Shown here: piece by piece, positions 1 to 40,000 of the stretch | How the letters are laid out: every line of letters begins with the position of its first letter | Numbering within the stretch: the first letter of the stretch is position 1 | NCBI GenBank assembly: GCA_035437565.1 | Contig: DAOMYL010000002.1 | Location: forward strand, 43,819 to 83,818 | DNA from: a bacterium | GTDB taxonomy: Bacteria > Patescibacteriota > Gracilibacteria > BD1-5 > UBA2023 | DNA: 40,000 bases | Reading direction: 5' to 3' | Notes under the pieces: model-generated | Told to the model about the DNA's origin: nothing | The model's input: the letters and a program-made list of their open reading frames with translations, nothing else | Databases searched by the model: none | Program-made: the position numbers and the translations under genes

Positions 1-51
1 AGAATACTCTTGGACGGATGGATAATTTATTTTTTAGACCCCCATTCGACT

Positions 52-1062
52 ATGGACATCTCCGCCCGCCATCCCGAGTACGCCTACCTCGATCTCATGC
101 GCGAGATCCTCGATACCGGCGTGCAGAACATCGACAATCTCGGCGGAGCCGAAGCCGTCTCTGTATTCGGCCGACAGATCCGATTCGACCTCTCCCGGGG
201 ATTTCCACTCCTCACCACCAAGAAGGTCTACTGGAAGGGCGTACTCCAAGAACTCTATTGGTTTATGAGCGGACAGACGAATATCAAGTACCTCGTGGAC
301 AACGGGGTGCATATCTGGGACGAACCTCCTCACCGAGCGTACAAGAGCGCGGCGATGCGCGGCGAAGTCCCACCCATGACGCAGGATGAGTTCATCGCGA
401 AAATCAAGGATGATGCCGTTTTCGCCGAGAAATGGGGGAATCTCCCCCGCATCTACGGGGAGATGTGGCGCCGCTGGCCGACCAAGAATCCCGGACGGAC
501 CGTAGACCAGCTCGCTTGGGCCGTGAAGGAGATTCAAGACGATCCCTACGCTCGGAACGCGATCGTGACCTCCTGGAATCCCGAGTATCTCTATCACATG
601 GCACTCCCGGAGGAGACCTGTCACTTCCCGATCTGCCACAACATGTACCAGCTCTCGGTAAAGAACAACAAGGTCTCGCTCCAGCTCTACCAGCGCAGCG
701 CGGACATGTTCCTCGGTGTGCCGTTCAATATCGCTTCCTATGCCCTGCTCGTCCATGTCATCGCCCACGTCACAGGCTACGAAGTGGGGGAATTCGTCCA
801 TACCTTCGGAGATGCACATGTCTACAACGCGCATATAGAACAAGCCAAGGAACAGCTCACGCGTGAGCCTTATCCTCTGTCCACGATCTCCATCAGTCCC
901 GAATGCACGAGCATCGACGATTTCCGTCCCGAGCATGTGACCCTGTCGGACTACAAGTCCCACCCCACGCTCAAGGCCGAGCTCCAGATCACGGGAGGAT
1001 TCTTCGACGCGACGCAGGTCGCGAGCGTGGCATCCGCGGACGGCTCGACTCCGAGCGCGTAA
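52..1062 (+). CDS. thyA: Thymidylate synthase ThyA
   Basis: Track ORF 10..1062. ThyA hallmarks are present: FPLLTTKK, LQELYWFMSGQTN, VTSWNP, CH.MYQ, QRSADMFLGVPFNIASYALL, GDAHVY. ATG at 52 (MDISARHPEYAYLDLMREIL) matches the usual N-terminus. TAA stop; no internal TGA. Confidence 0.9.
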   Translation: MDISARHPEYAYLDLMREILDTGVQNIDNLGGAEAVSVFGRQIRFDLSRGFPLLTTKKVYWKGVLQELYWFMSGQTNIKYLVDNGVHIWDEPPHRAYKSAAMRGEVPPMTQDEFIAKIKDDAVFAEKWGNLPRIYGEMWRRWPTKNPGRTVDQLAWAVKEIQDDPYARNAIVTSWNPEYLYHMALPEETCHFPICHNMYQLSVKNNKVSLQLYQRSADMFLGVPFNIASYALLVHVIAHVTGYEVGEFVHTFGDAHVYNAHIEQAKEQLTREPYPLSTISISPECTSIDDFRPEHVTLSDYKSHPTLKAELQITGGFFDATQVASVASADGSTPSA

Positions 1063-1064
1063 TT

Positions 1065-1751
1065 ATGATAATTTCATCATCGTCCGCGCCAATCGAGTAC
1101 CTCACAACCCTCTACGACTACCTCCGTCTCGGTCTCCCTCCGGTCGAATCCGATATCCTCGCGGTCTTCGGCAGCATAGACCCGGACGTGGCGACCTACG
1201 CGGCCGAGCTCTGGCATGCCGGATATTCGAAGTCCTGAAAGATCCTCGTTTCCGGAGGGATCGCGCATACCAACGATCTGCTCGCAACCGGATGGAACGA
1301 AACGGAAGCACGGGTTTTCGCTCGCGAAATGATCCTCCGCGGCGTACCGGAAGACGCAATTATTTTCGAAGACCGTGCCACCAACTCGGGCGAGAACGTC
1401 CGATTCTCTGCGGAGATCATTGAGCGAGAATTCCCGGACGCACGGTCGTTTCTCATCGTCCACCTCCCCTACATGGAGCGTCGCGCGATCGCCACATGGG
1501 AAGCACAATACCCACGACCGTACGATGCCGCCCGCCCCGTCTCGCGCCCGGAGACGCTCGACGAGTACCTCATACGAACCGGCATAGATACGGCGCGTCT
1601 TGCGAATATCCTCGTCGGCGATGCCCTCCGCATGGAGCGGTATACCGCGCTCGGATACCAATCGGATCAATGACCGCTCCCAACGGACATACGGACCGCC
1701 TGCGACACACTCATCTCACTCGGGTACGATCAGCATTTACCGAAATCTTAG
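1065..1751 (+). CDS. DUF218 / YdcF-like protein
   Basis: ATG 1065 overlaps the thyA stop region. Track ORFs 903..1238 and 1329..1673 share frame 0 and join through TGA 1236-1238. TGA 1671-1673 is also read through for 26 more codons to TAG 1749-1751. YdcF/DUF218-like pattern: SGG....ND, then EDRATNSGENV. Confidence 0.7.
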
Positions 1752-1752
1752 C

Positions 1753-2241
1753 ATGTCTATCTCCCTCATCGTTGCCATGGACCGCAACAACCTGATCGGG
1801 CGATCGGGGGAACTTCCATGGTACATTCCCGCCGATCTCAAGCGGTTCAAGGAATTGACCAAATGAGGCGTGGTCGTGATGGGACGCAAGACGTTCGATT
1901 CGATCATTGCACGGATCGGCACTCCCCTGCCAAACCGCATCAACGTGGTCGTGACCCGAGATACATCCTACTCCTATGAATGAGTCGTCATTGCACACTC
2001 GCTCGACATTGCTCTCGGCAATGCCCGACTCTTCGGTGGACGGGATATTTGGATCATCGGCGGAGCCGAAATCTACCGACAGGCTCTGGAGTCGAAAATC
2101 CCAGACCACCTCGTTATTACCCGAATAGATCGGGATCACGAGGGGGATGCATGGTTTCCAACCGTCCCGCCCGAATACACACTCACATCAACGGAACCAG
2201 GTGGAGAGTACTGGCACTACGAAGCCTGGACAAAGAAATAA
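1753..2241 (+). CDS. folA: Dihydrofolate reductase
   Basis: ATG 1753 lies 1 nt after the previous stop. Motifs: MSISLIVAMDRNNLIGRSGELPW, DLKRFKELT, VVVMGRKTFDSI, IIGGAEIY. In-frame TGA at 1864-1866 and 1981-1983; the fold is complete only if both are read through. TAA at 2239-2241. Confidence 0.9.
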
Positions 2242-2268
2242 TTGACAGCTCATTATTTAGCCTATAAT
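2242..2268 (+). promoter_or_regulatory. Sigma70-like promoter candidate (TTGACA-15 bp-TATAAT)
   Basis: Perfect -35 TTGACA at 2242-2247 and perfect -10 TATAAT at 2263-2268, about 37 nt upstream of ATG 2305. The 15-bp spacer is shorter than optimal. Confidence 0.5.
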
Positions 2269-2304
2269 CATATTCGTGGAATCTAATCATTTTTTAAAGT
2301 AGCC

Positions 2305-2991
2305 ATGAGCAAGAGAGGTGTAGAGGAACTCTTTTCACAGGGGGATACAAGCTCATCAGTATCTGGAAGCGTTGGTAAGATATTCGACCAACTGTTTGGA
2401 GATGTGTTCTGAGACAACGGAGGAATCCTGCCAGGGAACGACCGATCATACCGACCACCCCAAGGGTGGTTTCAAATCAGCGGCGGTGAACTGAATACTC
2501 TCTGGCTCACACCTGGGGGATCGGTCTCAAGTGCTCCGTCCCAGCATGAAGGACTCAGCCGTACACTCGTGAGTAGCGGGGCGGCTGGCCGCCTCTTCGC
2601 GGCATATCGGGAGGAGCAGGACGTGGTCGTACACTCGCCAAACTTTGGCGAGGTGTATCCTATTGGATGGAACGTAACGCCCGAGCGGTGGATGCTCTAC
2701 GCGAGCTTCGCAGAGATGGGAGCAAAACACTCGCCCCATGCGGGAAGCTGGTCGGGAGACGCGGCCAATCCCGATACGGTGGCCCTCCACCTCGCGGCAC
2801 TCGATTCAGACGGAGCAACCCACGAGATCCGCGGTATCGGTACGGCAATAGTTACTCGTGAGACGCTGAAGACCCGACGCAATGCCCGCGACACGGGGAA
2901 GACACCACCGGCGTTACCGATCGTCTTCGATCCCAAGTATGCCCAGCTGCTCGGTGAAGACGGCATGGAAGCGATTCGCACCTTCGTATAA
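2305..2991 (+). CDS. Hypothetical protein (228 aa)
   Basis: ATG 2305 is in the same frame as track ORF 2569..2991. Translated by hand with no TAA/TAG between them; one TGA at 2410-2412. No motif recognised. Promoter candidate upstream and terminator downstream. Confidence 0.55.
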
Positions 2992-5438: not shown

Positions 5439-8198
5439 ATGAACACCATCTACGCGAGTTTCGACATAGAATCAACCGGCACCGATCCTCGCCGCGATGC
5501 CATCATCGAGATCGGAATCGTGCGTTTCACATCGGATGGGGAGATTCTGCGGACCTACTCTACCCTCGTGCGCCCCACCGGAGCATTGCCACCGGAAATC
5601 GCGGAGATCACGGGCATTACTGAGTCCATGCTCGCGAGTGCGCCAAGGATCGACTCACTACGGACGGCCGTCATGGAGGAGCTCGCAGACGCCGTGCTCG
5701 TGGGGCATAATATCGAATTTGATCTCGCATTCATGGAGGCAGCCGGCATTTCCCTTGCGGGACGGACAGCCATAGATACCTTCGCGATGGCGAAGTTCCT
5801 TGCATGGAACGAATCATCTCTCAATCTCGGTCATCTCGTACGATCTTTCGGTCTCGAGGCGGGAGAATTCCACCGTGCGGCTGATGACGCACTCGCTACG
5901 GCACGACTCTTTTGCTCTTTCGTATCCCGGTTGCGTGCGCTCGATCCTTTGCGGTCCGGTATTCTTCGGACTCTCTCAGACCGTAGCCCCAAGAACACGC
6001 TCTTCTCTCACGTGGAAGAGGAATTTCTCCCCGCAAACGAAAGCGGACCGGCAACATGGAATGATTGCAAGGATGCCATCGTCTCAGCCATAAGGGCGAG
6101 GACTGCGGTGGAACCAGTCGATGAAGAAACACCGAGACCCGAGATCTCGGTGGATGCTATTCTCTCGGCTATGGCCGAGACGGCCACGGAGAATGGTCGG
6201 ACCATGGAACCAAGACCCGAGCAACGACGCATGATCAACACCGTAGCTGACGCTCTGAGGCAGCGGAAAAACACCGTAATAGAAGCTCCGACCGGGATCG
6301 GAAAGACCTTCGCCTATCTCCTCCCGACACTCTCGAGATCGCTTCCGCGGCGCGAGCGCGTTGTGGTTTCCACCCATACCAAGCTCCTGCAAGATCAGCT
6401 CTTGGATCGGGATCTGCCGTTTTTGCGCGACTCGCTCGAACGTGCCGGAGTTCCGAAGAGCTCATGGCGTGTGGCAAAACTCAAATGACGAGGCAACTAT
6501 GCATCGGTGGCACTCGCATTCGAGCGTGTGGAAAATGCGACATACGATCCCGAGTTCTTCGTGTTTGCGGCGAAGATTCTCTTATGGATGACGGAAACCA
6601 AGACCGGGGAACTCGATGAGCTCTCGTGGTACGGCCGAGAATACGAGTGGGCAGCGGAAATCCGTGCCAACGGGTCGTACGTCCTCGATCGGGACAACCC
6701 GCACCGCGATGCCGAATTTCTCACGACGGCACGCGAGCGTGCGAAAGAGGCCGACTGCGTTGTGGTCAATCACGCATTTCTCCTATCCGAATACGCCGAG
6801 GAACGAGTAGGAAAACGAATCCTTCCGCCCGCGGACCATATGATCCTGGACGAAGCCCACACCCTCGAAGACGTAGTGACGGGAGCTTGTCGACGCGATG
6901 CCTCGTACGAACGATTTGATGAAACGCTCGCAAAAATCGAGACGACCATTCGGGCCTATAATACCCGAGCAAAAGACCGGCTCGAAGAACCGTTTATCAT
7001 GCCCGAGTGGACATCGCTTCGAGATGGCATGAATATCGATGCGGGGATCGCATTCGATTTCTTTGCCGAATACTTCGCCGAACGCTCGGGGATCGCAGCC
7101 GGGCAGGAACATCGCGACATGCTCCGGCGGGACGATATATTCGCCCGCGAAGGGTATGCGACCGTAAGTCGGGCCGGAAGCGCGCTCGAAGAGCGAATGA
7201 AGACCATGCTGGAGCTGCTCTGGAATGCACCGGAACCGCTCGTAAGACGAATCGATGCCTACACGGACGCGCTCGAATCCATGGTCGATACGATCGTGCG
7301 ACACATTCGCGAGAGCGAGAAAGATGCGATTCATATCGTGGGGTCGAGCGTGCGGTCGGGAGCGGTATTCCTTGCCACAGCCCCCTTGAAAGTCGGCGAT
7401 TTTCTGCGATCCAAACTCTGGAGTACGCCCGCGGTCAAGATTCTCGCAAGTGCCACGCTCCGAGTCGGCGGATTATTCGATGCCATGCGTTCGATGCTCG
7501 GATTTGAGGGATTCGAAGAAGCGGTGTTCGCATCGGACTTCGATTATGCCTCGCAATCACTCTTCTATGTACCGACCGATCTCTGAGATGTCCGACATGC
7601 CGGAAGCAAGACGCGCGTCCACCGCTTCCTTGCGGAATTGATCCGGACCGTTGGAGGGAAGACGCTCGCGCTCTTTACATCCTTCGCAAGTATCAAGGAG
7701 GCATATCTCGCCACGAATCCAGACCTCAAATCGGCGGGGATTCGCATACTCGCCCAGGGACTCTCCGGCGGCAAACAACGGATGCTCGCGGAATTTTTAT
7801 CGAGGCCGGAATCATGCGCGATCTACGGGACCGATTCGTTCTGGCAGGGCATCGACATTCCCGGTAATGATCTCGGCACTCTCGTCATTCACAAGCTCCC
7901 ATTCGCTGTACCGACCGATCCGGTCGTTGCTGCACGCTCTTCCCTGTATGCCGATGGCTTCGCCGAGTATAGTGTCCCGCAAATGATTCTCAAGCTCCGC
8001 CAGGGAATCGGACGACTCATACGCACTCGGTCAGACCGCGGCATCGTAGTAATGCTCGACTCGAGAGTCCTCTCCGGATGGGGATCCGCAGTGCTCGAAA
8101 ACCTACCGGAGGGAATGAAGATTCGTACCGCACCATCGGAGGAATTCTTACGCATGCTCAAGAATCGGCTCTCAGACAAGACCGAGAGGGCTGGCTAA
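5439..8198 (+). CDS. dinG: DinG-family helicase fused to an N-terminal DnaQ-like 3'-5' exonuclease
   Basis: Three track ORFs (5439..6488, 6507..7586, 7638..8198) share frame 0 and join through TGA 6486-6488 (KLK-G-RGNY) and TGA 7584-7586. Exonuclease motifs: FDIESTG, GHNIEFD, FHRAADDA. Helicase motifs: EAPTGIGKT, ILDEAH. TAA stop; 919 aa. Confidence 0.9.
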
Positions 8199-8255: not shown

Positions 8256-9110
8256 ATGGTGAGCCTATCGAATAAAGACGCGAGAACCGAGCAGGGTGCA
8301 GATCTCTTCGGACAGCTATCCGGCGAGCTCGATCTCGGACGATCCGAAGAAGAGCTGGGCTTCGAGACACACGATCCGATCGAGCGGCGCATTGTCCTCT
8401 GAAACCGCATACTTACGGGATTCATGGTCATCGGAATACTGACCGTGGCATTCATGAAGCTCGACATCTACCTGCGATTTGACGCGGCAGATATAGGATT
8501 TTTCCGGAATTTCCCCATCTGCGACCGCCTCATCTCGGGTGTGGAGGGATACGAAAACCCGGGATGTCTCAATACGACCATGCTTCGGGACAGCCTCACA
8601 CGCCAAAAGGAAGAGCTCGAAACCGCTACCACGAAGCAGCTGATGCTCTACGTACCGTTGGTGCTCCCAACAATCAGTGTCGAGACCCGACCCGATGTGC
8701 AGTTTATTACCGAGACGACATCGAGCCGCACGCCGATAGTAAAAATGCTTGATACCCTCTATGAGGCAAAGAACGACACGGATCTCAAGGGAGAAGATAT
8801 CGAGTGTTCTGGGTACAAGTTCATCCGCGGAGGAGCACTCAAATTCTCGTGCAGCGTCTACGGGTCATCTGTTCTCGGTCCTATGGGACAGGCTCCGGTC
8901 TCTTCGCGCACGAAGACATTTCAATTCCTCGACCGACTCCAAAAGAAAGATACCGGATTCAGCATTCTGAACTATCCGTCAACACTCCCGATCGATACAT
9001 TCAAGAGCGCGGAACCGGGAATTAAGTCCCTCTTCGAGACCCGCACAAAGATCAGTCTCGACCTCCTCTATACTCCGCCGGAGCCAGAGAATCGCGATTC
9101 CGAAATCTAA
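8256..9110 (+). CDS. Bitopic membrane protein at the head of the pilus block (284 aa)
   Basis: ATG 8256. Track ORFs 8202..8402 and 8424..9110 share a frame and join via TGA 8400-8402. Architecture: ~55-aa cytoplasmic N-terminus, one TM (ILTGFMVIGILTVAFM), then a ~200-aa external domain. No PilN INLLP motif is seen. Confidence 0.6.
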
Positions 9111-13132: not shown

Positions 13133-14440
13133 ATGAGCGCGTTCTCTAAGCTCCTCCCCCTGAATCATCCGATCCGAGTCCTCTACCACTACGTCCGCGG
13201 TATCGCCGCCCACTGGCGGTATGGGCGACCTGGTCGCAACATGACCGTGATCGGCATCACCGGAACAAAAGGAAAAACCACGACCACGAATCTCATCGCC
13301 CGTGGCCTGAGTGGCAACGGCGCACGAGTGTTCGCATTCTCGACCGCAAACTACTGTATGGATGGCGAGTGGCACGAGAACACCACAAAAATGACGAGCC
13401 CTTCACCATTCGTGCTCCAGCGACTCCTTCGTGAAGCGGAAAACCGTGGCTGTACCCATGCGGTCATCGAGACATCGAGTCACAGCGTATTCTATCACCG
13501 GGACTACGGTGTCGCCTATGACACGGTCGTCTTCACGAATCTCTCGCGCGACCATCTCGATCTCCACCGCACCATGGCCGATTACCTCGCGACCAAGAAG
13601 CGACTCTTCGAGTGACTCGTTTACTACCGCCGAAAAAAGGGCGTGAAGAAGATCGGGATCGTGAATCTCGATGACCCCGCCGCCAATGAATTTCTCTCCG
13701 TGACAGCGGACGCGCTCATTACCTACGGGCTCACCCCCGCAGCCGAAATCTCCGCAAAGAGCGTACAGGAGACGGGGGACGAGACAGTTATTACCATTCG
13801 GATGCCCTCGAACGAATTTGTAATCCGATCTAAACTCCGCGGCACCTACAATGTATCGAATATCCTCGCTGCCACCGCGGCACTCATGGCCCAGAAGGTT
13901 CCATCGGCAGTAATAGCGGAGACGCTCTCGAAAACTTCTGGCATACCATGACGACTGGAACCAGTCCAAAATCACCTGGGAATACGCATCTTCGTGGACT
14001 ACGCTCACACCGAATGATCGCTGCAAAACGTCCTTGAGACCGTCCGAAACATTCCGGACTGCGGACGAGTTATTGTCGTGTTCTGAGCGACAGGAGACCG
14101 CGACCCAGCAAAACGTCCCAAGATGGGAGCCGTAGCAGACCGCTTGGCAGATGTCGTCATAGTAACGGATGACGATCCTTATACCGAGCCTTCCGCCAAG
14201 ATTATTGCCGAAATAGCGGAAGGGGTCTCGCGAAAAATCGGAGAGAACTATTGGATCGTCCCGAATCGGGAAGACGCCATCCGAACCGCTCTCGCAGTCT
14301 CCCGATCCGGAGATACCATCGTACTGGCTGGCAAAGGATCGGAGACGATCCAAATGACGAACCGCTGAGCGGTAAAATGGAACGATGCGGAAGCGACAAA
14401 ACGGATTCTTGCGGAGGTTGAAAAAAACGAAATCAACTAG
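13133..14440 (+). CDS. Mur ligase family protein, MurE-like, with a very short N-terminal region
   Basis: Track fragments 13115..13615, 13643..13951 and 14123..14368 share a frame. Five in-frame TGA at 13613, 13949 (IP-G-RLEPV = PGRxE), 14015, 14084 (VVF-G-ATGDRD) and 14366. Motifs: GITGTKGKTTT, VDYAHT, KRPKMG, VTDDDPYTE. Only ~38 aa precede the P-loop. TAG at 14438-14440. Confidence 0.85.
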
Positions 14441-14845: not shown

Positions 14846-15550
14846 ATGCAACGGTTCTTACTCGATACCCCTCTTGCCGAACGAATTTGTCTGACAAACC
14901 CCGACCTCGTCCATCAGATCGGTCATGTCCTGCGATCAGCGGTCGGAGACTCGATTGTTTTCTTCGATGGCCACTCACCCGAAGAACACCTCTACCGGAT
15001 CGAGAGTGTCTCCAAGCGGACAGTAGAGTGCCGCCGGACGGCAATACGCCCCTCCGAATGCGAACCGCAACATCGGGTAACGATCGCTCAGGCCATGCCA
15101 AATACCATCGAAAAGCTCGAGTATGCCCTGCAGAAATGCGTGGAAATCGGCGCGACCGGATTCATAATATTTCGCGGTGACCGCTCGCAAAAACCGCTCC
15201 CGAATGAACACAAACGCGAGCGTCTCGAAAAAATCGCAAAAGAAGCACTGGAGCAATGCGGCGGCTGTATCATGCCGGAAATCCGCTATACCGAGAGCAT
15301 ATCCGATGCGATTGGGAGTCCACGGGAGACCTTCGCGCTCGATATGGGGCCGTTCCGTGCCGATTCCATGACCGAGCACGGATCGATAACACTCCTTGTC
15401 TGACCCGAAGGAGGATGGAGCAACGAAGAACGGGAGTTTTTCAGTCGGACAGGGATCGAGCGGATTTCATTCGGCAATCGCGTGATGCGAACCGAAACAG
15501 CTGCTGTGGCTGGATGTGTAATGTTTGCTCACGGCACACAGTTGTGATAG
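14846..15550 (+). CDS. rsmE: 16S rRNA (uracil1498-N3)-methyltransferase RsmE
   Basis: Track ORF 14846..15403 continues through TGA 15401-15403, giving LLV-G-PEGGWSNEE (the invariant GPEGG), then FGNRVMRTETAAV. It ends TTG TGA TAG, with TAG at 15548-15550. Confidence 0.9.
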
Positions 15551-19164: not shown

Positions 19165-19225
19165 GTCTTGACTCGAAAAGTGACGGAGTATACTGAGGAA
19201 GTATAGTCCATAATCGAAAACACGT

Positions 19226-23709: not shown

Positions 23710-24669
23710 ATGATTATCACTGTTGTCGATCTCTCGCTCTCCCCTCGCGAGACACTGCCATTCGCGCCGGAGACGCTCACGTGCATAGAGCGTTCGCTCG
23801 CAAGCGGGAGACATGTCATTATCTACCACAATCGCCGCTGAGCCGGGACAGCAACAATCTGCCGTACTTGTTCGCATGTTTGGCAGTGTCCCCGCTGCGA
23901 TGTTGCGCTCGTCCGACATCTCCGACCGACAGATCGTCTTCGGTGCCACCGGTGCGGCTATGTGGGCCATCCTCCAGAAACATGCCCGGAATGCGGCGGT
24001 GCGGATATTGCAACGATCGGAGTTGGGACGCAGGCGATCGAGAGTCGCTTACAGACACTCTTTCCATCGTTCCGGATCGTACGGCTCGATGCCGACTCCG
24101 GAGAGTCAGCATGATGTGATGATCCGTTGCTCTCTCCGTCCATATTCGTTGGGACCGCGAGCGTCCTCTCAGTCTACTCAGATCGGATCGGGACATGCGT
24201 TTTTACGCTCTTCGAGAATGATTCCATTGTCACGAGCTACGACAGTGACGAAACACTCCACCGCCGCATCCGACTACTTTCGGAACGATCGAGTGAAACC
24301 GTGATACAGACCCATATTCCGCATCACCCAGTCATTCGCTCATTCGTCTCCGGAACCTACCGGGAATTCGCCCGGGAATCGCTCGATCGACGCATGCGTT
24401 TCTGATACCCGCCGTATGCCGAATTGGTCGATATCGTCATTCGCCACCGCGATCGGACGAAGCTCGACACGATTCTGGCAAGCATAGAATCGTGACTGAC
24501 AAACAGACAGAACACGACAGAACTCTCCTGTGATCGGTCGGTGACATCGCGGGAAGACGGTCTCTATGTGCGCCGCGTAACGATGAAGTGAATCGATCTC
24601 GGAACGGATCTCGCGCTCATACGCAATACGCTCTGGAAGAACCGTGCGGTCTCGGTAGAGTGGCACTAG
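23710..24669 (+). CDS. priA: PriA-like C-terminal module only (Cys-rich zinc region, degenerate RecA2 lobe, C-terminal domain); no helicase N-terminal half
   Basis: Frame 1 translated by hand from ATG 23710 to TAG 24667-24669 (319 aa), with 5 TGA including 23839 (YHNRR-G-AG) and the one in RMRF-G-YPPYAEL. Four CxxC pairs: CRTC..CPRC..CHRC..CPEC. GVGTQAIESRLQTLFP follows. Motif V/VI equivalents are degenerate (IFVGTASVLSVYSD; LLSERSS in place of QVAGRAGR). The start is 27 nt after the pilin terminator. Confidence 0.75.
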
Positions 24670-26192: not shown

Positions 26193-26221
26193 TTGGAAAC
26201 GCGACCATGCTATCATATAAT
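26193..26221 (+). promoter_or_regulatory. Promoter candidate for rnr (TTGGAA-17 bp-TATAAT)
   Basis: -35 at 26193-26198 and -10 at 26216-26221, 22 nt before ATG 26243. It lies in the short divergent region shared with the MFS gene. Confidence 0.45.
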
Positions 26222-26242
26222 GGTTTTTCCCGCAATTTCCGC

Positions 26243-28327
26243 ATGCATACCGCTATCGGCATATTCCGCAACAAAAACGCTTCGGGCTCCATCATCGAGA
26301 CGGAATCCGGAGAGGAGGTTTTCGTGTCTGGACGAGACGGTGCAAACGCTCTCCCTGGAGACCGAGTTCGTATCCGGATCTTCAAAGCCGCGGCATGAGG
26401 CCGGCGCGCCGAGTGATCAGTCCTCCAGGTAATCGACCGGACAAACCCTCGCCAAATCGTGCGGATCTCGGGAGAATACCGTGGGTCCCTTCGGGCCGAG
26501 CTCGCGGGGATCGCCGCATCCGACACGACCATCTCGATCCCGAAGACATCTTCGCTCGGAGCACGGATCGGAGATATTGCGGTCGTGGAGATTGAGACAA
26601 CAGTCACGAAGAGCAATACGGGACGGGTCGTGGAAATCCTTGGGAATGCCGCGACCGCCGGCATCGAGGAGCGGATCATTATCGAGTCTGCGGGGATTCC
26701 ACGCACATTCCCTGCCGAGGTTCTCTCCGAAGCCAGCACATTTCAGACTCCTACCTCATCTGATTTCGCCGGACGACACGACTATCGTGATGAGTGGGTC
26801 TATACCATCGATGGGGCAGATGCCCGAGACCTGGACGATGCGATCCACGTCCGCCGCCTGCCGGACGGCGACTACGAGCTTGGCGTGCATATCGCCGATG
26901 TCTCGCACTATGTGCGCGAAGGATCAATGCTGGATCGCGAAGCATCGGCACGATCCACGAGCGTCTATCTCGGCATGGAGGTCATTCCCATGCTCCCCGA
27001 GCGTCTCTCGAACGATCTCTGTTCACTGCATCCTGGCACCCCGAAGCTCACACAGTCGGTCATCGTGCGAGTGTCGGCAGATGGTCAGATTCGTCTCCTA
27101 GAGCTCGGCGAATCAGTCATTGAGAGTCGGAAACGATTCACCTACCTGGAAGTGCAGGCCATCATCGACGGAGATGCGGACGAGTCCGCCTATCCTGATG
27201 AACTGCGAGAGAGTATTCGCACAGCCTACGAACTCTACACCCTGATCGCTATAAAACGAAAGCGCGAAGGAAAAATTAGTTTCGAGTTCAGCGAGACGGC
27301 GATCGACTACGAGAATCCTCTCACGATCCGGTCGATCCGACCGAAACATCGAGTCGACGCGCACAAACTCATCGAGGAATTCATGATTACCGCCAACGAA
27401 GCGGTGGCCAAGCATTTCGCGACGAAGCGACTACCGAATCTCTCCCGCATCCACGAGTGCCCCGAGCCAGATCGACTCTCGCGCCTCGCAGAGATTTTGT
27501 CTGCCTATGGGATCGAGACATCGGGAGAGGCACTCGCCCGCCACGAAGAAATGGAACGAATCGTGGAACAACTCTCCTCACCCGAGAAAGAGCCTCTGCT
27601 CAAGTACGTGCTCACGTCTCTGAAGAAAGCCGAGTACAGTCCGCAGAATCTCGGCCACCACGGACTCGGTCTCAAGCATTATTCACACTTTACCTCGCCT
27701 ATCCGGCGGTATCCTGACCTCATTACCCATCGACTCGTGAAGGCGTGGAGTCGGCACGAGCTCTCGCACGCAGTGATAGATCGCTACGCGAAGAATCTGC
27801 CGGAGATCGCCACCCGCACGAGTGCCCTGGAGCGTCGCGCGGAACGAGCCGAATACGACGTGCGCGACACGCGCCTCGCCCGATATGCTGCTGGTAAGAT
27901 CGGTGAGATCTACGGTGCGGTCATTACCGGCACGACCGAGTTCGGAGCCTTCGCTCGAACAGATGAAGGACTGGAAGGATTTTGTTTTTGGCGAGAGATT
28001 CCCGTGCGTACACGGTGGCATGAGCCATCGCTCTCGCTCGTGGACGCACAGGGGTACGCGTACCTACGAATCGGGGATCGCGTGCAGGTTCGCCTCTCGG
28101 CAGCAGATCCCGCGACTCGGCGTATTGATTTCGCGCTCGTGGATCGCGAGACACGCGAAGAAATCCGGATCGACCTGACCCATCGGATGAATATCGGACG
28201 AGGAGTAAAAAAGACCAAGAAGATACCTGTCCCACCAACATCTCCATCGAGTCATGCTCCTGCGAAGAAGCCACGCCGACCACGCCGACGGGGTGGCAAG
28301 GGACGAAAGAAGACTTCGAACAATTAA
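26243..28327 (+). CDS. rnr: Ribonuclease R (RNB family 3'-5' exoribonuclease)
   Basis: Track ORFs 26207..26398 and 26459..28327 share a frame and join through TGA 26396 and 26414. Cold-shock-like N-terminus, then RNB motifs DGADARDLDDAIHV, HIADVSHYV, STSVYL, HHGLGLKHYSHFTSPIRRYPDLITHR. An S1-like domain and a Lys/Arg-rich tail follow. The start is ATG 26243 or 26207. Confidence 0.9.
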
Positions 28328-29535
28328 TGAGATTCCGGAGCAATCGGTCGGAATCGGACAAACCACTCGAAGAGAATCGTACAACAGAGCAATACCCCTG
28401 CAAATCCCGCGAAGTACCAGAGCGTCACCGAGAGCGGATACCCTGCCACGAATAGTCCTGAAACAAACAGTAGGAGCGCATACATACCCCGACCTGAGAG
28501 TGATACGAGCGAGTGCACGGTTGCTCGTCGATCATCGGATACGAGGGCGTTGATCTCGGTGGGCTGGAGATACTGAACCGCCCCCCGAGCAATCTGATGC
28601 GCGAAGATACCGAGCCATCACCACGTCGGGAGCCACTGTGCCATGAAGACATATCCCAGAAGCAACAGAAGTACAGGGACGATAATTGTTATCCGGAAAC
28701 CATATCGCGGCAGCAACCGTGCAATAAGTCGTGACCCGAGTAGTACGAACACATAGAAGGATGCAAAAATGAACCCCATCCAGGTCATATCAATACCGCC
28801 CGCGGCGATGATTGGCTGATAGTACCAAAGACCAAGCTGATTCAGACTCACACATCCAGCAAAAACAAAGATCACATACAACATCGTGCGACTCCGCAGG
28901 ACGGTGTTCATGAGAATATCGAGCATGTGATGGTGGGCACGCATACCAGAGTCTCGAGCACGAATTCGTTCTGGCTCAATCAAGAACCATGCAGCGAGAA
29001 TCGCGGTAGAGCCAATAAGTGCCGATACACTCAATGCCCAGACTGCCCCAAAGTACCCAGCAATAATCGACCCAGCGATTGCGTAACCTGCCTGCATCGC
29101 ATATGTTCATTCTATCACCTTTGCCCAAGACTTCTTCCCCTCGGTCTCACGTTCTTCGGGAGCATGAGACTCATAAACCATCGACTCGAGCGTCCCGGAG
29201 TAAAAGCTTACAGCAAATCCGAAACAGAGCTCGGAAAGCAGAAACGTAAAGAAATCATACGATACGACGTAACCCCAGAGCCCGAGTGTCACGAACGCAG
29301 CACTCACGAGGAGTGATGTCCGACGCGAAAACCAATCGGAAAGAAATCCGGACGGTACCTCAAGAAGAGCGACTGCCGCAGCATACGCTGCCTGCAAAAA
29401 CAATACATCCGCCATTGTCAACCCCTTATCAAGCCAGTAAAAAACGATAATCGGTACGGTGAGAACAACAGATTCTTGCGCGGCATAGAACCACCGCAAG
29501 AGCAAAATATTCCGATGCTGGTAGGGGGATGACAT
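28324..29535 (-). CDS. MFS-type transporter (403 aa)
   Basis: Track ORFs 29107..29535, 28618..29097 and 28324..28518 share a frame and join through TGA 29107-29109 and 28618-28620. Hydrophobic segments run throughout. The TAA stop overlaps the rnr stop (TTAA). Confidence 0.8.
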
Positions 29536-30580: not shown

Positions 30581-31393
30581 CTACTGCTTGGCAAGCTTCT
30601 GAAGATCGCCAACCGTTTTTCCGGTCCGCCCGACACGGGCAATTTTTCCGTCTACGTCATTGCCGGTATATCCCAGAGATTGCTGGAGTCCCTTTGCTAC
30701 ATCTTCACTAAGAGACATCCACTTGGCACGAGCGTCGGCGGTAATCTGTTTCGATTTTCCGATAAGCTCCGTGAGAATCTTTCTCGCTTCATCAGGACTG
30801 ATGGTCTTATTTTCGATCGCGATACGGATTTCTCTCTGGAGGGGGCTCTCGGAAGCAGTAGATGACTCGAGCTTCTCATTTCCGGTCACTGCCGCATCGG
30901 CTGGAGAAATCTCCCGAACATTGGATGCGGAGAAGGTGTAGCTCGGAAGGTCCGAGCGAGACTGGGTCGAGCGATCTTCGTTGGAGAGGCTCCCATCAAT
31001 CTCAGCAAGCGAGGTCTGCGCTCCCGAGGCATCCACATAATACGTAGACCACGCCTGCACCTGGACCGATACGCCTCGTGCCTTGGCAAATTCGGTCGCT
31101 TTAGCCTTGAGATCGGTCGAGCTCACATCGCCGATCGCCGCAAAACGCTCCTGACCATCCTTGTCTACGATGCGGTAGATTTTCGCCTCCTTTGATTTTT
31201 CAGCTTCGTCAAAAGCTTTTTTGAGAACCTTGCGATCCGGCTCTTTCTCGGCCGCTTGTTGTGCATCGAGCTGCCGCATACCAGCCTGGGCAGCCCCACC
31301 AGGATCCCCGTTTGGCAGGCATGTAGAATCCGCCCCGACTTCGGGAGATTGATGCTTGCTATCCGGTCACCGAGCGACGATTTTTGTTCCCAT
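30581..31393 (-). CDS. Hypothetical protein with a C-terminal peptidoglycan-binding-like repeat
   Basis: Track ORF 30581..31279 extends through one TGA to ATG 31393; an upstream in-frame TAG limits any further extension. The C-terminal VAKGLQQSLGYTGNDVDGKIARVGRTGKTVGDLQKL resembles the PG_binding_1 pattern (LQ..LGY....DG.fG..T). No clear signal peptide. Confidence 0.55.
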
Positions 31394-31566: not shown

Positions 31567-32577
31567 TTATCCCTCGTACCCCTTCCACGCATCCATCAGG
31601 TTTTCATTCGCGTTCGGTGTGGGCTTATCGAGCTCTCCAGCGAAGTCTGATCGGATCGTGCCGAGCACCGCAAGCACGTCATCGAGCGACTCGACCGAGA
31701 CAAGCGACTTCCGGTAACCACGTGCACCGGGAAGGGCGTGAAGATACTGCACAAGATGCTTACGAATCTCCAGACACCCCTTGCGTCATTTTGTTGCAAT
31801 GAGCAGAGTCGCGTGTCGCTCCATTACGTCCACGGTTTCACCGAGCGTTGGGCGGTATCCACCAGGCAGGAAACACCACGGATTCCCGAAGCTCGCTCGT
31901 CCGATCATGAATCCGGCGAGGTTTTTTTTCTTCGCCATTCCGTCATCGTATCCCATTACATCACCATTCCCAATCACGGGGACCGATACCATATCAGCGA
32001 GCTCGTAGGTCCCCGTCCAGTCGGCCAATCCAGTAAATTTCTGTTGGTAGGTTCGCCCATGAATCGTGAGCATGTCCGCTCCGGCATCCACGAGTCCCCG
32101 ACAGAAGTCGATGAGGTTGGAATGATCCTCCCACCCGAGTCGCGTCTTCACAGAGATCGGGAGACTCACAGCCCGAGCCATCGCCTCCACACAGGCGTAG
32201 GCAGTATCGCGGTTGATCATGAGCCCCGACCCATGGCCGCTCTTTACCACCTTTTTTGCTGGGCAGCCCATATTCACATCGATACCAGCTGCCCCATATC
32301 ATTCTATGATTCGTGCGGCCTCAGCAAATTTCTCGGGGTCCTTGCCGAAGATTTGGAATATCACGGGCTTCTCGCTCAGATCATGCGGGAGTACCGTGCG
32401 AGCCAGTATAGGCGAATGCACAAGTCCGTCCGCACTGTAAAACTCGGAAAAAACAATAACATGAGGGGCAACGGATTTTACCACTTGGCGGTACGCGGAG
32501 TCGGTATAGCCGTCCATCGGGGCGAGTGCGACAATGGGGCCGGCATCGGCGCGTTCGCGCCAGAATGATTTACTCAT
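31567..32577 (-). CDS. tRNA-dihydrouridine synthase
   Basis: Track ORFs 32299..32577, 31786..32277 and 31567..31752 share a frame and join through TGA 32299-32301 (IIE-G-YGAAGIDVNMGCP) and TGA 31786-31788. Motifs: LAPMDGYTDSAYR, NMGCPAKKV, TIHGRT. TAA at 31567-31569; 336 aa. Confidence 0.9.
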
Positions 32578-34092: not shown

Positions 34093-34332
34093 ATGCAAAC
34101 AGAATTAGAACCATACGCAAATCTTGGACGAGATTCCGCTATACTCAGGTACGGCTACGGCAATGATTTTATCATTGTAGAATTTCGCTCGTGAGCATTT
34201 ACGCTCTACACATATACCTATGAAAGTGCTGGAGCCCCGCATATTGAAAATATGAAACGGTTGGCTGACACGGGAGAGGGGCTAAACTCATATATCTCCA
34301 GACACAAACCCCCTTATCAATCTAAAGACTAA
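34093..34332 (+). CDS. KTSC domain-containing small protein (79 aa)
   Basis: Found by hand because a TGA splits it. Sequence MQTELEPYANLGRDSAILRYGYGNDFIIVEFRS-G-AFTLYTYTYESAGAPHIENMKRLADTGEGLNSYISRH. It fits the KTSC pattern (igY.....L.v.F..G..Y.Y......y..l..a.S.G.y.n..I). TGA 34192-34194 falls on the conserved Gly. TAA at 34330-34332. Confidence 0.7.
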
Positions 34333-35110: not shown

Positions 35111-35117
35111 TTTTTAT

Positions 35118-35145: not shown

Positions 35146-35182
35146 GGCATCGAGATGGTTTAGATGCTAACTTTTTTCAATT

Positions 35183-37060
35183 ATGTCCAAGATCATCGGA
35201 ATTGACCTCGGTACGACCAACTCATGTCTCGCCGTCATGGAGGGAGGAAAAGCAAAGGTCATTCCCAATGCCGAGGGAGGAAACACCACTCCGTCCGTCG
35301 TTGCCATGAAGGGATCGGACACACTCGTGGGTATGCCTGCCAAGCGTCAGGCCGTGAGCAATCCCGCTGGAACGATCTTCTCCGCGAAGCGATTTATCGG
35401 ACGCAAGTACGATGAGGTGCAGAACGAGCTCAAGAATGTGCCGTTCAAGGTGGTAAAGGGAAGCAATGGTGAATGTCTCATCGAGTTCGGAGGAAAGAAT
35501 GTCCGACCGGAGGAGATCTCCGCCAAGGTACTGGAGAAGCTCAAGCAGGATGCGGAGCGGTTCCTAGGAGCACCCGTCAAGGAAGCGGTCATCACCGTGC
35601 CAGCGTACTTCAACGATGACGAGCGACAGGCAACGATCAACGCTGGTAAAATCGCCGGACTCGATGTGAAGCGCATCGTGAACGAGCCGACCGCCGCAGC
35701 GCTCGCCTATGGAGAAGGATCGAAAAAGGATCAGAAGATCGCGGTCTACGACTTCGGAGGAGGAACGTTCGACATCTCGATCCTGGAGATCGGGTCGGAG
35801 GGGACGTTCGAGGTACTCGCCACAAACGGAGACACCCACCTCGGAGGAGACGATTTCGATCAGCGCATCTTCGAATACGTCATCAGCGAATTCCAGAAGG
35901 ATCAGGGGATCGACCTACGCAAGGACCCGATGGCGGTCCAGCGCGTCCGCGATGAGGCTGAGAAAGCCAAGAAGGAGCTTTCGAGCGCGAGCGAGACCGA
36001 GATCAACCTGCCGTACATCACTATCGATGCATCGGGGCCGAAAAATCTCTTCGTGAAGATTACTCGTGCGAAGTTCGAGGAGCTCGTGGCCGACCTCGTG
36101 GAACGCTCCATAGAGCCCTGTCGCAAGGTAATGAAAGATGCGGGGCTCCAGGCTTCGCAGATCGATGAGGTGATTCTCGTGGGAGGATCAACCCGCGTCC
36201 CGATGGTCCGACAGAAGGTCGAGGCATTCTTCGGCAAGGCTCCGAACTCGAGCGTGCATCCGGACGAGGCAGTAGCCGTAGGAGCCGCGATCCAGGCGGG
36301 AATCCTGCAAGGAGACGTAAAGGATGTCCTCCTGCTCGATGTTACCCCTCTCTCGCTCGGAATCGAGACACTCGGGGGCGTGATGACTCGCATGATCGAG
36401 CGCAACACAACGATCCCCACATCCAAGTCGCAGGTCTATTCTACCGCTGCAGACGGACAAACTTCGGTGGAGATCCATATTCTCCAGGGAGAGCGCGAGA
36501 TGGCAGCCGACAACAAATCACTCGGACGATTCATCCTCTCGGGGATTCCGTCCGCACCGCGCGGAGTCCCACAGATCGAGGTCACATTCGACATCGATGC
36601 ATCGGGAGTCCTCCATGTCACCGCCAAGGACAAGGGGACTGGCAAGGAGCAAAAGATTACTGTCCAGGGATCGACCGGTATGAGCGATGATGAGGTCGAT
36701 CGACTCGTGAAGGAAGCCGAGGCGAATCGTGACAGTGACAAGGCAAAGAAAGAATCTATCGAGGCTCGCAATATGGCAGAGTCTGCCGTCTATCAGGCCG
36801 AGAAGACTCTGAAAGACAACGAAGGGAAATATGACGCAGCGCTCAAGACTGAGGCAGAGAGCGCGATCGAGTCGCTCAAGGGAACACTCTCCGATGAGAA
36901 GTCCGACAAGTCCACCCTCGAATCCGGTACGAACAAACTCCAGGAAACCATGATGAAGATCGGACAGGAAATCTACTCGAAGCAGCAGGCCGAAGGGGCT
37001 GCAGACTCCGGACAGACGAAGTCGGACGACAGCGTGGACGCCGAGGTGGAGGAGAAATAG
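35183..37060 (+). CDS. dnaK: Molecular chaperone DnaK (Hsp70)
   Basis: [23 protein letters not shown]-type segment ([13 protein letters not shown]), [15 protein letters not shown]... 625 aa, no internal TGA, TAG stop. Confidence 0.97.
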
Positions 37061-37076
37061 CAATCTTCTTTCATAC

Positions 37077-37105
37077 AAAAAACCCCCGAATACTCGGGGG
37101 TTTTT
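37077..37105. terminator. Bidirectional rho-independent terminator
   Basis: AAAAAACCCCCGA atac TCGGGGGTTTTT, between the converging dnaK and Nudix genes. Confidence 0.85.
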
Positions 37106-37120
37106 CCGGTATACGGACGT

Positions 37121-37690
37121 CTACTTTCCGAGAATCCTCTCCCGCAATTCCCCTATCGTCCCATCGATCTTGGCACGAGCGAACAGGAGCGAAAGCTTAG
37201 GAGAAATACGAATCTTCTCGTAAATTAGCATGTCCACAAACTCGTCGAAACTCACCCACACCTCCTCGATTCGCTCCCCTGCATCGAGCGACTGCTCCGT
37301 GACCTTGCGAATACTGCGCGCAACATAGATGTATTCATCAAGTCGCATGACGCTCGTGCCACCGACCGTCATAAGCAGGTCCCACTCGTCAGCTTCGTAT
37401 CCCGACTCTTCCAATACTTCCCTTTTCGCTCAGAGAAGCGGCTCCTCATTGGACTCGATCCGTCCTCCGTATAGCGAGAGAAACGGTGGACGATGCGGTT
37501 GTTCCTGTCGATTGATCCCGATCCGACCCATATCATCCACGAGAATAACCCCTGCCGAGTCGCACCGAGAAACTGCTTCGAATGTCTGGATCGTCCCATC
37601 GAACATGGTTTGCGGCCACTGGTAGACATCAACGAGCTTCCCCTCGAAAACGAGTGAAGCATTCGGTGGGAACTCGCGTTTCGGTTGCAT
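37121..37690 (-). CDS. NUDIX hydrolase
   Basis: Track ORFs 37430..37690 and 37121..37414 share a frame and join through TGA 37430-37432. Nudix box GGRIESNEEPLL-G-AKREVLEESGY (G.5E.7REuxEExGu). TAG stop; 189 aa. Confidence 0.85.
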
Positions 37691-37748
37691 TGTCGCAAGC
37701 GTGAGATATTATCGCTCGCAGTCTATCGATTTTCGCACGAAACGCTAT

Positions 37749-38648: not shown

Positions 38649-38671
38649 TCATTAAAATCCTGCAGAGAGTA

Positions 38672-38699
38672 TTGACAATATAAATTTAATTTTTATATT
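38672..38699 (+). promoter_or_regulatory. Promoter candidate (TTGACA-16 bp-TATATT)
   Basis: -35 at 38672-38677 and -10 at 38694-38699 in an AT-rich stretch right after miaA. It would drive the sORF at 38726 and possibly ftsA. Confidence 0.45.
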
Positions 38700-38725
38700 G
38701 ATATTTGTTTTTTGAAAACCCCACG

Positions 38726-38902
38726 ATGACACCTCTCAATATTAGCCCTCCAGGATTCTTCGAGAAACCGAGGACTCCTGATCTCCCAAGCTATGCGGAA
38801 GCGGTACGATTCTTGCAACTTCCGTGAGAACCGGACGCCGCCTTCGCCGCGCGCGCTGCACGCCTGCTGAATCCCTCGCATTTCCCTCTGGAATCACGGT
38901 AG
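38726..38902 (+). CDS. Small ORF (58 aa), speculative
   Basis: ATG 38726 to TAG 38900-38902 with one TGA. Sequence MTPLNISPPGFFEKPRTPDLPSYAEAVRFLQLP-G-EPDAAFAARAARLLNPSHFPLESR. A promoter candidate lies upstream, but it competes with the antisense track ORF 38742..38954. Confidence 0.25.
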
Positions 38903-39141
38903 GACGAGTTTCATCCCGGATATCCTCTTGTTGGACATTCTTCGCCTTCTTCATGGGTCGATCGTATATTCCGTGGCGTACATCATGTTTGGACGACTAA
39001 ATATTGTGTTCGGAGTATTGGGATAAAGGATCGCATTCGTATTGAAAAACTCCCGGAACCGTCTATACTGACGCTATGGAAAAACGGAGTGAATTGGTCT
39101 CGTCAAGACCTTTATATTCTCTCTATGAAGCCATAGAATCA

Positions 39142-39158
39142 GTATAAAAATTTTATAC
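39142..39158. promoter_or_regulatory. 17-bp perfect palindrome upstream of ftsA (possible operator)
   Basis: GTATAAAA a TTTTATAC at 39142-39158, 25 nt before ATG 39184. Confidence 0.35.
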
Positions 39159-39183
39159 GAACCAAACGAATTCCACAAAACCC

Positions 39184-40000
39184 ATGCCAACAGGAGAAAC
39201 ATTCACCGCCATCGACATCGGCAGCTCCAAGATCAAGACCATCATCGCGAACTTCTCCGAGAGCAACGATATCCGGGTTCTCGGAGTCGGAACCTCCGCC
39301 TCCGGATGAGTCCGGAAAGGCAACATTCTCGATATGGACGAGTTCAAGAAAAATCTCGATCACGCCCTTTCGGAAGCTGAGCGCATGACCGGAGAACAAA
39401 TCACCAACGTCTACCTCACCCTCTCCGGGCCCGTCATCGAGAGCGTCACGAACGTTGGGATCGTCTCGGTCCTCGGTACCGAGATCACGGAGGATGACGT
39501 CAATCGTTCCCTCGACATGGCACAGAACGGGGTCGATCTCACGAACCGCTCGGTTCTCAAGGTGATCCCGGAAACGTTCACTATCGACCGCGAACCCGGT
39601 CTGAAGAACCCTGTCGGCATGGCCGCAAAGAAGCTCGAAGTCCGCGCACATATCTACTCCATCGGATCGAATGTTCTCGCGAATATCCAGCGGGCCGTCG
39701 GCGATGTTGGGGTTGGGATCCTCGATATGTATCCGAGCGTCATTACCTCGGGAGAGGCTGTCCTGTCGAAGCGACAGAAAGAGCTCGGGGTCACCGTCAT
39801 CGAGATCGGATCATCAAGTACGAATATTGCCGTCTACGAGGAGGGCGCGCTCCTCTTCTCATCGGTGGTACCCGTCGGTGGAGAGCATGTGACGAGCGAT
39901 ATCGCGCTCGGTTTCCGCGTATCCATTGATCTCGCCGAGCGTCTCAAGCTCGAAGTAGCCGACCTCGCATTTTCTCCCGAGGATGATAAGGACGTGGAGA
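39184..40000 (+). CDS. ftsA: Cell division protein FtsA (5' part; runs off the window)
   Basis: Absent from the track because TGA 39307-39309 cuts off a 41-aa head and the rest has no stop inside the window. Sequence FTAIDIGSSKIKTIIA...GVGTSASG-G-VRKGNILDMDEF..., LKVIPETFTIDREPGLKNPVGM, VIEIGSSSTNIAVYEEGAL, GGEHVTSDIALGF. It aligns with E. coli FtsA motifs. Confidence 0.9.

Follow-up and report, generated by a model that had tools for sequence, protein, structure and literature searches.

What does UGA specify in a GC-rich genome whose genes are interrupted by TGA and never by TAA or TAG? The question is raised by 40,000 nucleotides of contig DAOMYL010000002.1 (positions 43,819 to 83,818 of the forward strand). 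This whole stretch is called the window; coordinates refer to it unless another locus is named. An initial annotation had proposed that UGA is a glycine codon throughout (genetic code 25), a reassignment known since 2013. The analysis reported here leads to the same reading: with a probability of about 0.95, the source of the window is an uncultured patescibacterium of Gracilibacteria type (BD1-5 / GTDB JAEDAM01-like) with code 25. UGA is translated in the window, and translation ends only at UAA and UAG. As judged from aligned homologues and domain profiles, the residue inserted at UGA is glycine.

Genes were mapped as open reading frames (ORFs) delimited by TAA and TAG only, and starts were then chosen; TAA and TAG as the only stops are therefore built into the gene models by construction. 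The map holds 31 genes (11,417 codons) and covers 85.5% of the window. In-frame TGA codons number 44 and are spread over 19 of the 31 gene models, with no in-frame TAA or TAG. Within the window, the 30 complete genes terminate in TAA (18) or TAG (12), and ftsA runs off the end. In the same genes, TAA, TAG and TGA occur respectively 48, 77 and 184 times in frame +1 and 37, 12 and 192 times in frame +2. All three stop triplets are thus common off frame, and the in-frame pattern of 0, 0 and 44 is not compositional. In a leave-one-out codon-usage test, the own frame scores highest for every model, including the ORFs that have no homologues. The TGA codons are evenly spread along the genes (relative positions 0.01 to 0.99) and show no preference for the following base (G, 18; T, 12; C, 8; A, 6). 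One extra TGA (34192) lies in a doubtful small ORF (34096-34332) and is outside the count of 44. The hand count of about 50 TGA codons in the initial annotation was of the right order, if slightly high (44-45 are counted here). Its nine quoted coordinates all proved to be in-frame TGA codons; 32299 reads TCA on the plus strand since the gene, dus, is on the minus strand. Its observation that genes end in TAA or TAG, and never in TGA alone, holds for 30/30 complete genes.

The genes continue beyond these codons. For scans of domain continuity against Pfam, TGA was masked as X. Single domains were found to extend across TGA codons: DHFR_1, Mur_ligase_M, Mur_ligase_C, Methyltrans_RNA (RsmE), PS_pyruv_trans, His_Phos_1, the RecG wedge, MFS_1, Dus and NUDIX. 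Homology persists downstream of every alignable TGA, in frame and without any change of frame, as had been noted for the adjacent ORF fragments. Wherever it could be checked, it runs past the last TGA of the gene: alignments to PDB chains reach residues 428-430 of 435 in MurE (last TGA at codon 412), 652 of 658 in RecG (codon 576) and 299 of 336 in Dus (codon 264).

The identity of the residue was examined in two ways. Ten proteins that contain TGA were aligned to PDB chains, which gave 21 alignable TGA sites (Table 1). Glycine is the majority residue at 12 of them and tryptophan at none (binomial P=1e-8 against a glycine background of 8%); two further sites are tied (G/I and G/A). In addition, 15 proteins were rescanned against Pfam with all TGA codons read as G or as W, and scores were compared with those for the neutral X. 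Summed over 14 domains, the score is 49.2 bits above that for X with G and 17.2 bits below it with W, and G thus leads W by 66.4 bits; G is preferred in 11 of the 14 families. The largest gains of G over W are those of PS_pyruv_trans (+16.4 bits), Mur_ligase_C (+11.6), CSD2 of RNase R (+8.5), RsmE (+7.6) and DHFR (+7.4).

The initial annotation had listed nine TGA codons as falling on invariant glycines. Six are upheld by homologues: RsmE 15401, PriA 23839, MurE 13949 and 14084, histidine phosphatase 20363 and RecG 22493, the last also in 36 of 43 RecG sequences from standard-code genomes. The other three do not stand as invariant glycines. Dus 32299 and DinG 6486 face other residues or gaps, or fall where the alignment is unreliable (Table 1), and the third lies in the small ORF 34096-34332, which had been called a KTSC gene. 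This assignment was rejected (no Pfam match at E<=10 with X, G or W), and the ORF, with its weak codon score, is not countable as a confirmed gene.

As far as one gene family (recG) tells, the code appears to be plain code 25, with no further reassignment. CGA and CGG are used 202 and 190 times in the window. In recG, their columns are occupied mainly by Arg or Lys (Arg, 0.56 and 0.43 of column weight, respectively), and Trp is outside the top four residues. In the same alignment, TGG aligns with W and TGA with G.

The affiliation of the window was examined with RecG, whose protein sequence was scanned against one genome per GTDB species; this yielded 80 loci. The 37 best matches (47-56% identity) are labelled by NCBI mostly as Candidatus Gracilibacteria, some as Patescibacteria group or Candidatus Peribacteria, and include the complete genome of Gracilibacteria HOT-871. 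All 37 have in-frame TGA in recG (3-37 each). The next 43 matches (Peribacteria, Peregrinibacteria and Veillonella; 39-44% identity) have none. In the joint alignment, the recoded sequences hold 797 TGA cells; in the columns concerned, the 43 standard-code sequences have 67% Gly (9.2-fold over a background of about 7%) and 0% Trp. Opposite the two TGA codons of the window recG, 31 (20831) and 36 (22493) of these 43 sequences have Gly; the 37 recoded relatives have only Gly or TGA in the two columns, save one Asn in that of 20831. On this single marker, and by similarity ranking, the window is placed among the UGA-recoding Gracilibacteria / Absconditabacteria, in agreement with the Gracilibacteria-type lineage of the candidate phyla radiation proposed by the initial annotation. 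No Absconditabacteria (SR1) label occurs among the best RecG matches. No GTDB species representative exceeds 56% identity in RecG; no near-identical locus was found, and therefore the organism has no species-level representative in the one-genome-per-GTDB-species collection. In a comparison of synteny, the 80 loci with their 10-kb flanks hold almost no other gene of the window; recG alone was analysed.

Nine of the third-party metagenome-assembled genome (MAG) loci are titled "uncultured Candidatus Peribacteria" (L004, L005, L007, L012, L017, L021, L022, L029 and L032). Their recG (10001-12000 in most of them) has 7-36 in-frame TGA and groups with the recoded Gracilibacteria-type sequences. 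The NCBI label of these nine MAG loci looks wrong, and possibly their translation table too.

The hallmarks expected of code 25 are a tRNA-Gly with anticodon UCA and the absence of release factor 2 (RF2) (PMC8629427; gTranslate preprint). By analogy with the clade, UGA would be decoded in this organism by such a dedicated tRNA-Gly, and RF2, which otherwise stops translation at UGA, would have been lost; RF1 would then serve UAA and UAG. Neither prfA nor prfB is present within 48.6 kb (the window plus 8.6 kb). In 60 related loci, ARAGORN detected no tRNA whose anticodon is UCA. When metagenomes were scanned by pattern for Gly-type tRNAs with this anticodon, at least 25 contigs proved to carry one; among the matches listed, none comes from the source sample Ga0069787. 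Seventeen of these tRNAs were aligned. Fifteen of the 17 belong to a very conserved 76-nt (+CCA) family, and G1:C72, C2:G71, G3:C70 and U73, which are Gly identity elements, are invariant in all 17. When the alignment is folded as a cloverleaf, 98.6% of cells are paired, and 12 of the pairs are compensatory. The contigs are rich in in-frame TGA. Genes also known from the window have homologues close to some of these tRNA genes, namely rsmE (three contigs), the short priA (one) and thyA together with folA (one). Those associated with rsmE are within about 0.6 kb of it (L174, 849-927; L090, 923-1001, minus strand; L137, 304-382). No tRNA is encoded in the 405-bp murE-rsmE spacer of the window (14441-14845).

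The recoded clade has a tRNA(UCA) whose sequence (consensus GCGGGGGTAACATAAAAGAGTGAGTGTACTAAGGCTTCAACCCTTGGGTGTGCCAGTTCAAACCTGGTCCCCCGCTCCA) is strikingly uniform over contigs of 18-44% GC (e.g. L146, 5053-5131; L122, 624-702). Its D-loop has 10 nt, and a sixth pair possibly lengthens the anticodon stem. The label tRNA-SeC that ARAGORN gives it is due to the anticodon alone. A different tRNA with anticodon UCA, 71 nt long and close to proteobacterial glyT, is found on L161 (76-146, minus strand; PJEL010153803.1, 1.5 kb, 53% GC). No link to this organism could be made, since its contig resembles neither the window nor the relatives of the window.

Several observations weigh against the assignment to code 25 and to this clade. 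At 54% GC, the window equals or slightly exceeds the upper limit of the values published for the clade (0.21-0.53; PMC8629427). ARAGORN finds no tRNA of any kind in the window, in the Joint Genome Institute (JGI) contig that extends it by 8.6 kb (L001) or in L002. A covariance model of the related tRNA(UCA) genes, run on 72 kb of this organism (window plus flanks), gives no match (best E=0.8). Seven of the 21 alignable sites are non-Gly or variable (Dus 32299; DinG 6486 and 7584; MurE 13613, 14015 and 14366; PriA 24403), as is expected for a codon that is also used at variable positions; single sites hence prove nothing. The MFS_1, PilM_2 and Helicase_C profiles marginally favour W (by 0.9-2.3 bits). 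Eight of the 44 TGA codons are in ORFs without homologues (the 616-aa ORF and 2305-2991), whose coding nature is backed by frame statistics only.

Four other explanations were weighed. The three profiles just named are loose ones, and their slight preference for W would suit the reading of UGA as tryptophan (code 4), as would the W found opposite MurE 13613 in 1 of 5 homologues, the single base that separates TGA from TGG and the existence of GC-rich genomes with UGA=Trp (Hodgkinia, 0.28-0.58 GC; PMC8629427). However, tryptophan is the majority at none of the 21 sites, TGA stands within the invariant-Gly motifs GPEGG, RVGRG, NRRG, FGxGGDRD and PGRLE, the Pfam total is 66 bits lower for W, Trp is absent from the outgroup RecG columns that face TGA in the relatives, and recG itself sets W opposite TGG and G opposite TGA; the tryptophan reading is extremely improbable. 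Equally little credit is given to the view that TGA is still a stop and that the interrupted genes are decaying pseudogenes or products of sequencing or assembly error. Many genes are indeed interrupted, and the PriA-like gene is truncated, weakly codon-biased and the densest in TGA. Decay would, however, also produce TAA, TAG and frameshifts, and none accompanies the 44 TGA codons. These codons hit essential single-copy genes (murE, recG, ftsA, folA and rnr) and favour Gly columns, and the pattern is common to 37/37 close relatives. Moreover, two independent assemblies, from JGI and the European Nucleotide Archive (ENA), are 100% identical over the compared part (27839-40000), apart from a run of N in the former.

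UGA is also the selenocysteine codon and the leakiest stop, and ARAGORN calls the UCA-anticodon tRNAs "SeC", so that selenocysteine or programmed read-through sites in the standard code were considered. Such sites are most improbable as the explanation of 44 codons in 19 unrelated housekeeping and hypothetical genes, none of them of a known selenoprotein family, with no Cys aligned opposite any TGA site, no favoured base after TGA and positions from one end of the gene to the other. The related tRNA(UCA) fold as ordinary cloverleaves of 76 nt and carry Gly elements in the acceptor stem; they are not of the long-arm tRNA-Sec type. No selenocysteine insertion sequence (SECIS) element is among the Rfam matches (the window has none), although no dedicated SECIS search was made beyond Rfam. 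Last, UGA could have a dual meaning, Gly at most sites and stop at some. Its rarity (5% of Gly codons) makes an incomplete or reverting reassignment conceivable, and TAA and TAG as the stops are assumed by the gene models. The gene that could illustrate it is rsmE, which ends in CTG TGA TAG (last two codons, 15545-15550): its final codon before the stop is a TGA beyond the aligned region, the one place where a terminating TGA and a Gly codon look alike. Yet a TGA stop is not required for the normal length of any gene, homology runs past the last TGA in MurE, RecG and Dus, and the clade is reported to lack RF2 (PMC8629427; gTranslate preprint); a dual meaning is considered very unlikely. Glycine at UGA, with termination at UAA and UAG, is the preferred reading.

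Under code 25, the window is unusual in composition. Its GC is 54% and uniform along its length (51-57%), versus 20-44% in the related recoded loci. In recG, TGA makes up about 0.9 of TGA plus Gly codons where GC is 20-23%, but only 0.04 in the window, and this share is inversely related to GC (Spearman -0.82, P=3e-10). Over the whole window, 44 TGA stand against 771 GGN (44/815 Gly-type codons, about 5%). They are densest in weakly biased genes (priA-like, the 616-aa ORF and the pyruvyl transferase gene). Twelve genes, including dnaK, pilB, pilC, thyA and miaA, have no TGA. Codon-bias scores are 0.33-0.51 for the TGA-free genes (0.21 for the pilin gene) versus 0.13-0.26 for the genes with at least four TGA. 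This avoidance of TGA in the most codon-biased genes fits what is expected of a rare sense codon read by a minor tRNA. Tentatively, and with somewhat less than even confidence, the window may represent a deep, unrepresented GC-rich branch of the UGA=Gly clade, in which GC pressure would have cut UGA to about 5% of Gly codons and removed it from the most codon-biased genes. If so, the lineage would be a natural test of the fate of a captured stop codon once the mutational bias that may have enabled its capture reverses: UGA could be either stably kept as a rare sense codon or on its way to loss or reversion. The tracking of GC by the UGA share across relatives bears on codon-capture explanations of UGA reassignment.

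Table 1. Genes of the window, their in-frame TGA codons and the residues found opposite them. (Gly), site where Gly is the majority residue among PDB homologues. G, W and X: Pfam score in bits with all TGA read as Gly, Trp or masked.
Feature	Position	Strand	In-frame TGA	Evidence and remarks
DUF218 (YdcF-like) gene	1065..1751	+	1236, 1671	Pfam DUF218 (E=8e-18) spans residue 58; score identical with X, G or W
Dihydrofolate reductase (DHFR)	1753..2241	+	1864 (Gly), 1981 (Gly)	Gly in 5/5 PDB DHFRs at each site; DHFR_1: G 151.5, X 147.2, W 144.1
Hypothetical protein	2305..2991	+	2410	No Pfam match; own frame best by codon score
DinG-type helicase with N-terminal DEDDh exonuclease	5439..8198	+	6486, 7584	Pfam RNase_T, DEAD, Helicase_C_2; alignment to S. 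aureus DinG (PDB) crosses both TGA (S at 6486, A/V at 7584); E. coli DinG alignment unreliable around 6486
Hypothetical membrane protein	8256..9110	+	8400	No Pfam match; own frame best
MurE-type Mur ligase	13133..14440	+	13613, 13949 (Gly), 14015, 14084 (Gly), 14366	PDB MurE to E=1.5e-60; Gly in 5/5 at 13949 (PGRLE) and 5/5 at 14084 (FGxGGDRD); 14015, E/G/D/D/D; 13613 and 14366, variable; Mur_ligase_C: G 120.5, W 108.9
RsmE 16S rRNA methyltransferase	14846..15550	+	15401 (Gly), 15545	Gly in 4/4 PDB RsmE at 15401 (GPEGG); Methyltrans_RNA: G 129.7, W 122.1
616-aa orphan ORF	15587..17437	+	15605, 15920, 16766, 16826, 16862, 17087, 17201	No Pfam domain; no homologue in a search of 5.8 billion proteins; codon score 0.172 in frame versus <=0.012 in the other five frames
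Polysaccharide pyruvyl transferase	18058..19296	-	19246, 19120, 18778, 18529	PS_pyruv_trans: G 102.7, X 89.0, W 86.3 (biggest single Gly gain)
Secreted Kazal-domain protein	19226..20095	+	19331	Pfam Kazal_1; TGA outside the domain
Histidine phosphatase (CobC/PhoE-like)	20099..20716	+	20363 (Gly)	Gly in 5/5 PDB homologues; His_Phos_1: G 132.0, W 126.2
RecG helicase	20768..22744	+	20831 (Gly), 22493 (Gly)	PDB RecG E=4e-116; Gly in 2/2 RecG structures at 22493 (RVGRG)
PriA-like protein, C-terminal half only	23710..24669	+	23839 (Gly), 24112, 24403, 24493, 24589	PDB PriA match (E=1e-26) across residues 16-249; 23839 (NRRG), Gly in 3/3; 24112, G or A beside a gap; 24403, Q in 3/3; 24493 and 24589, outside the alignment
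RNase R	26207..28327	+	26396 (Gly), 26414	PDB RNase R E=2e-54; 26396, G/G (2/2); 26414, G/I; CSD2 over the whole protein: G 60.8, W 52.3
MFS transporter	28324..29535	-	29107, 28618	MFS_1 spans both; W 72.3, slightly above G 70.5 (loose transmembrane profile)
Hypothetical protein	30581..31393	-	31367 (codon 9)	No Pfam match; own frame best; the true start may lie downstream of the TGA
tRNA-dihydrouridine synthase (Dus)	31567..32577	-	32299, 31786 (Gly)	Pfam Dus (E=6e-72) spans both; 31786, Gly in T. maritima Dus; 32299, E/E/gap/gap in PDB homologues
NUDIX hydrolase	37121..37690	-	37430	TGA inside the Nudix box; NUDIX: G 49.2, X 46.6, W 44.4
FtsA, off the window end	39184..40000	+	39307 (Gly)	Gly in 4/4 PDB FtsA
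Small ORF ("KTSC" of the initial annotation)	34096..34332	+	34192	Not confirmed as a gene; codon score -0.057, below every confident gene
thyA	52-1062		none	
5'-3' exonuclease	3374-4570		none	
TGA-free gene	9122-10402		none	
pilB	10436-11689		none	PilB/GspE ATPase
pilC	11699-12856		none	PilC/GspF platform protein
TGA-free gene	17691-18092	-	none	
Pilin	22814-23635		none	Prepilin with N-terminal methylation motif
MFS	24666-26216	-	none	
TGA-free gene	29601-30431	-	none	
TGA-free gene	32701-33207		none	
DnaK	35183..37060	+	none	55 GGN
miaA	37749-38648		none	
Region	4571-5438			Nothing but a weak ORF on the minus strand (4567-5325; codon score 0.02), which has no Pfam match
Region (about 2 kb)	33208-35182			No convincing gene on either strand except the doubtful 79-codon small ORF; no Rfam match, no tRNA

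Some of these genes call for comment. The 616-aa ORF is, by its composition only, probably a real gene. The PriA-like gene has the highest TGA share of the window (5/19 of Gly plus TGA codons). Its product aligns to about 382-640 of full-length Peribacteria PriA and to 363-606 of E. coli PriA, is without the Walker A/B helicase lobe and is encoded directly downstream of the pilin gene. A short-form homologue (332 aa, 30% identity, E=5e-50) is encoded by the recoded metagenome contig L097; the gene therefore looks like one for a conserved short protein, not like a pseudogene. The type IV pilus / type II secretion set (10436-12856 and 22814-23635) is wholly TGA-free and strongly codon-biased, which suggests high expression. 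Pilin genes also adjoin recG in several relatives (L003, L007 and L029).

The same DNA is present in other public assemblies. The part 27839-40000 is identical, base for base and apart from the run of N, to JGI contig Ga0069787_10980705 (51 kb, sample 3300006417; locus L001), which adds the 8.6 kb past the right end of the window and brings the total reached to 48.6 kb. The thyA end of the window is also found on contig NODE_157 (65 kb) of ENA assembly ERZ761605. A search of the window and L001 against Rfam gave no match. The run, of 67 N with duplicated flanks, is inside dnaK of the JGI scaffold (L001, 8182-8248; around 36000 in the window) and splits the public DnaK call into 279 and 353 aa; the run stems from the assembly and is no feature of the organism. 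What looked like a 90-bp insertion in the JGI dnaK was dismissed, being only this run, a scaffold gap.

The practical consequence is mis-annotation. Public table-11 calls on the identical contigs are cut exactly at TGA codons: Dus into 161 and 92 aa, the MFS transporter into 159 and 142 aa, DinG into 349, 359 and 186 aa, the DUF218 protein into 57 and 114 aa and the membrane protein (8256..9110) into 48 and 228 aa. The public FtsA call begins only after the TGA, and a 41-aa piece precedes it. A gene for a CHASE2-nucleotidyl cyclase (L001, 17740-19206), about 5.3-6.8 kb past the right end of the window, has one TGA, in the context NKYE-TGA-DAIMALWG, presumably the conserved GD motif of cyclases. 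The public calls break it exactly there, into CHASE2 (277 aa) and Guanylate_cyc (207 aa) proteins. When table 25 and table 11 were compared, the 31 genes of the window were estimated to become, under table 11, 44 pieces of at least 60 aa that retain 86% of residues (14% are lost). The mis-splitting announced by the initial annotation is thus real, but its figure of roughly 25 genes was somewhat too high; re-calling with table 25 restores 19-20 full-length genes in the window alone. Table-11 calls on the public JGI and ENA contigs cut murE, dinG, dus, the MFS gene and others, and the fragments enter protein databases. Because table 11 keeps about 86% of residues here, heuristics that detect the code from coding density are weaker in such genomes.

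The main value of these data is practical (re-annotation). The UGA=Gly code is already well known (NCBI table 25) and is no surprise to a specialist. The modest new points are a genome of 54% GC in which TGA serves as only about 5% of the Gly codons, and the lack of a close species representative; the persistence of UGA=Gly at low usage under a GC-rich composition is of minor evolutionary interest.

Three known systems can be compared with the window. Code 25 of SR1/Gracilibacteria (GTDB class JAEDAM01, orders BD1-5 and Absconditabacterales) has been supported by proteomics of a BD1-5 bacterium, in which the peptides specific to a single translation numbered 97 for Gly, 3 for Trp and 0 for stop (PMC4032931). 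The window shares with it in-frame UGA on Gly columns of conserved genes and termination at UAA and UAG only; its nearest RecG relatives all have the trait, and related contigs carry a tRNA(UCA) with Gly identity elements. It differs in its GC (54% versus 20-44% in the 37 related loci) and in the rank of UGA, which is minor among the Gly codons here (about 5%) but predominant among those of the AT-rich relatives (up to 90% in recG). The variant of Absconditabacteria (SR1), of the same wider clade, also has UGA=Gly, with CGA and CGG reassigned to Trp in addition (Shulgina and Eddy 2021, PMC8629427). In the window, by contrast, CGA and CGG are abundant and, in recG (one family), aligned with Arg, not Trp. 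Code 4 (Mycoplasmatales, Hodgkinia, Zinderia, Nasuia, Stammera and others) shares the reassignment of UGA and an annotation fragmented in the same way under table 11, and Hodgkinia shows that such a reassignment can stand alongside high GC. The window differs from it in the amino acid, Gly and not Trp, and in its gene content, which includes murE, recG, dinG, rnr and a type IV pilus system and does not suit an extremely reduced endosymbiont.

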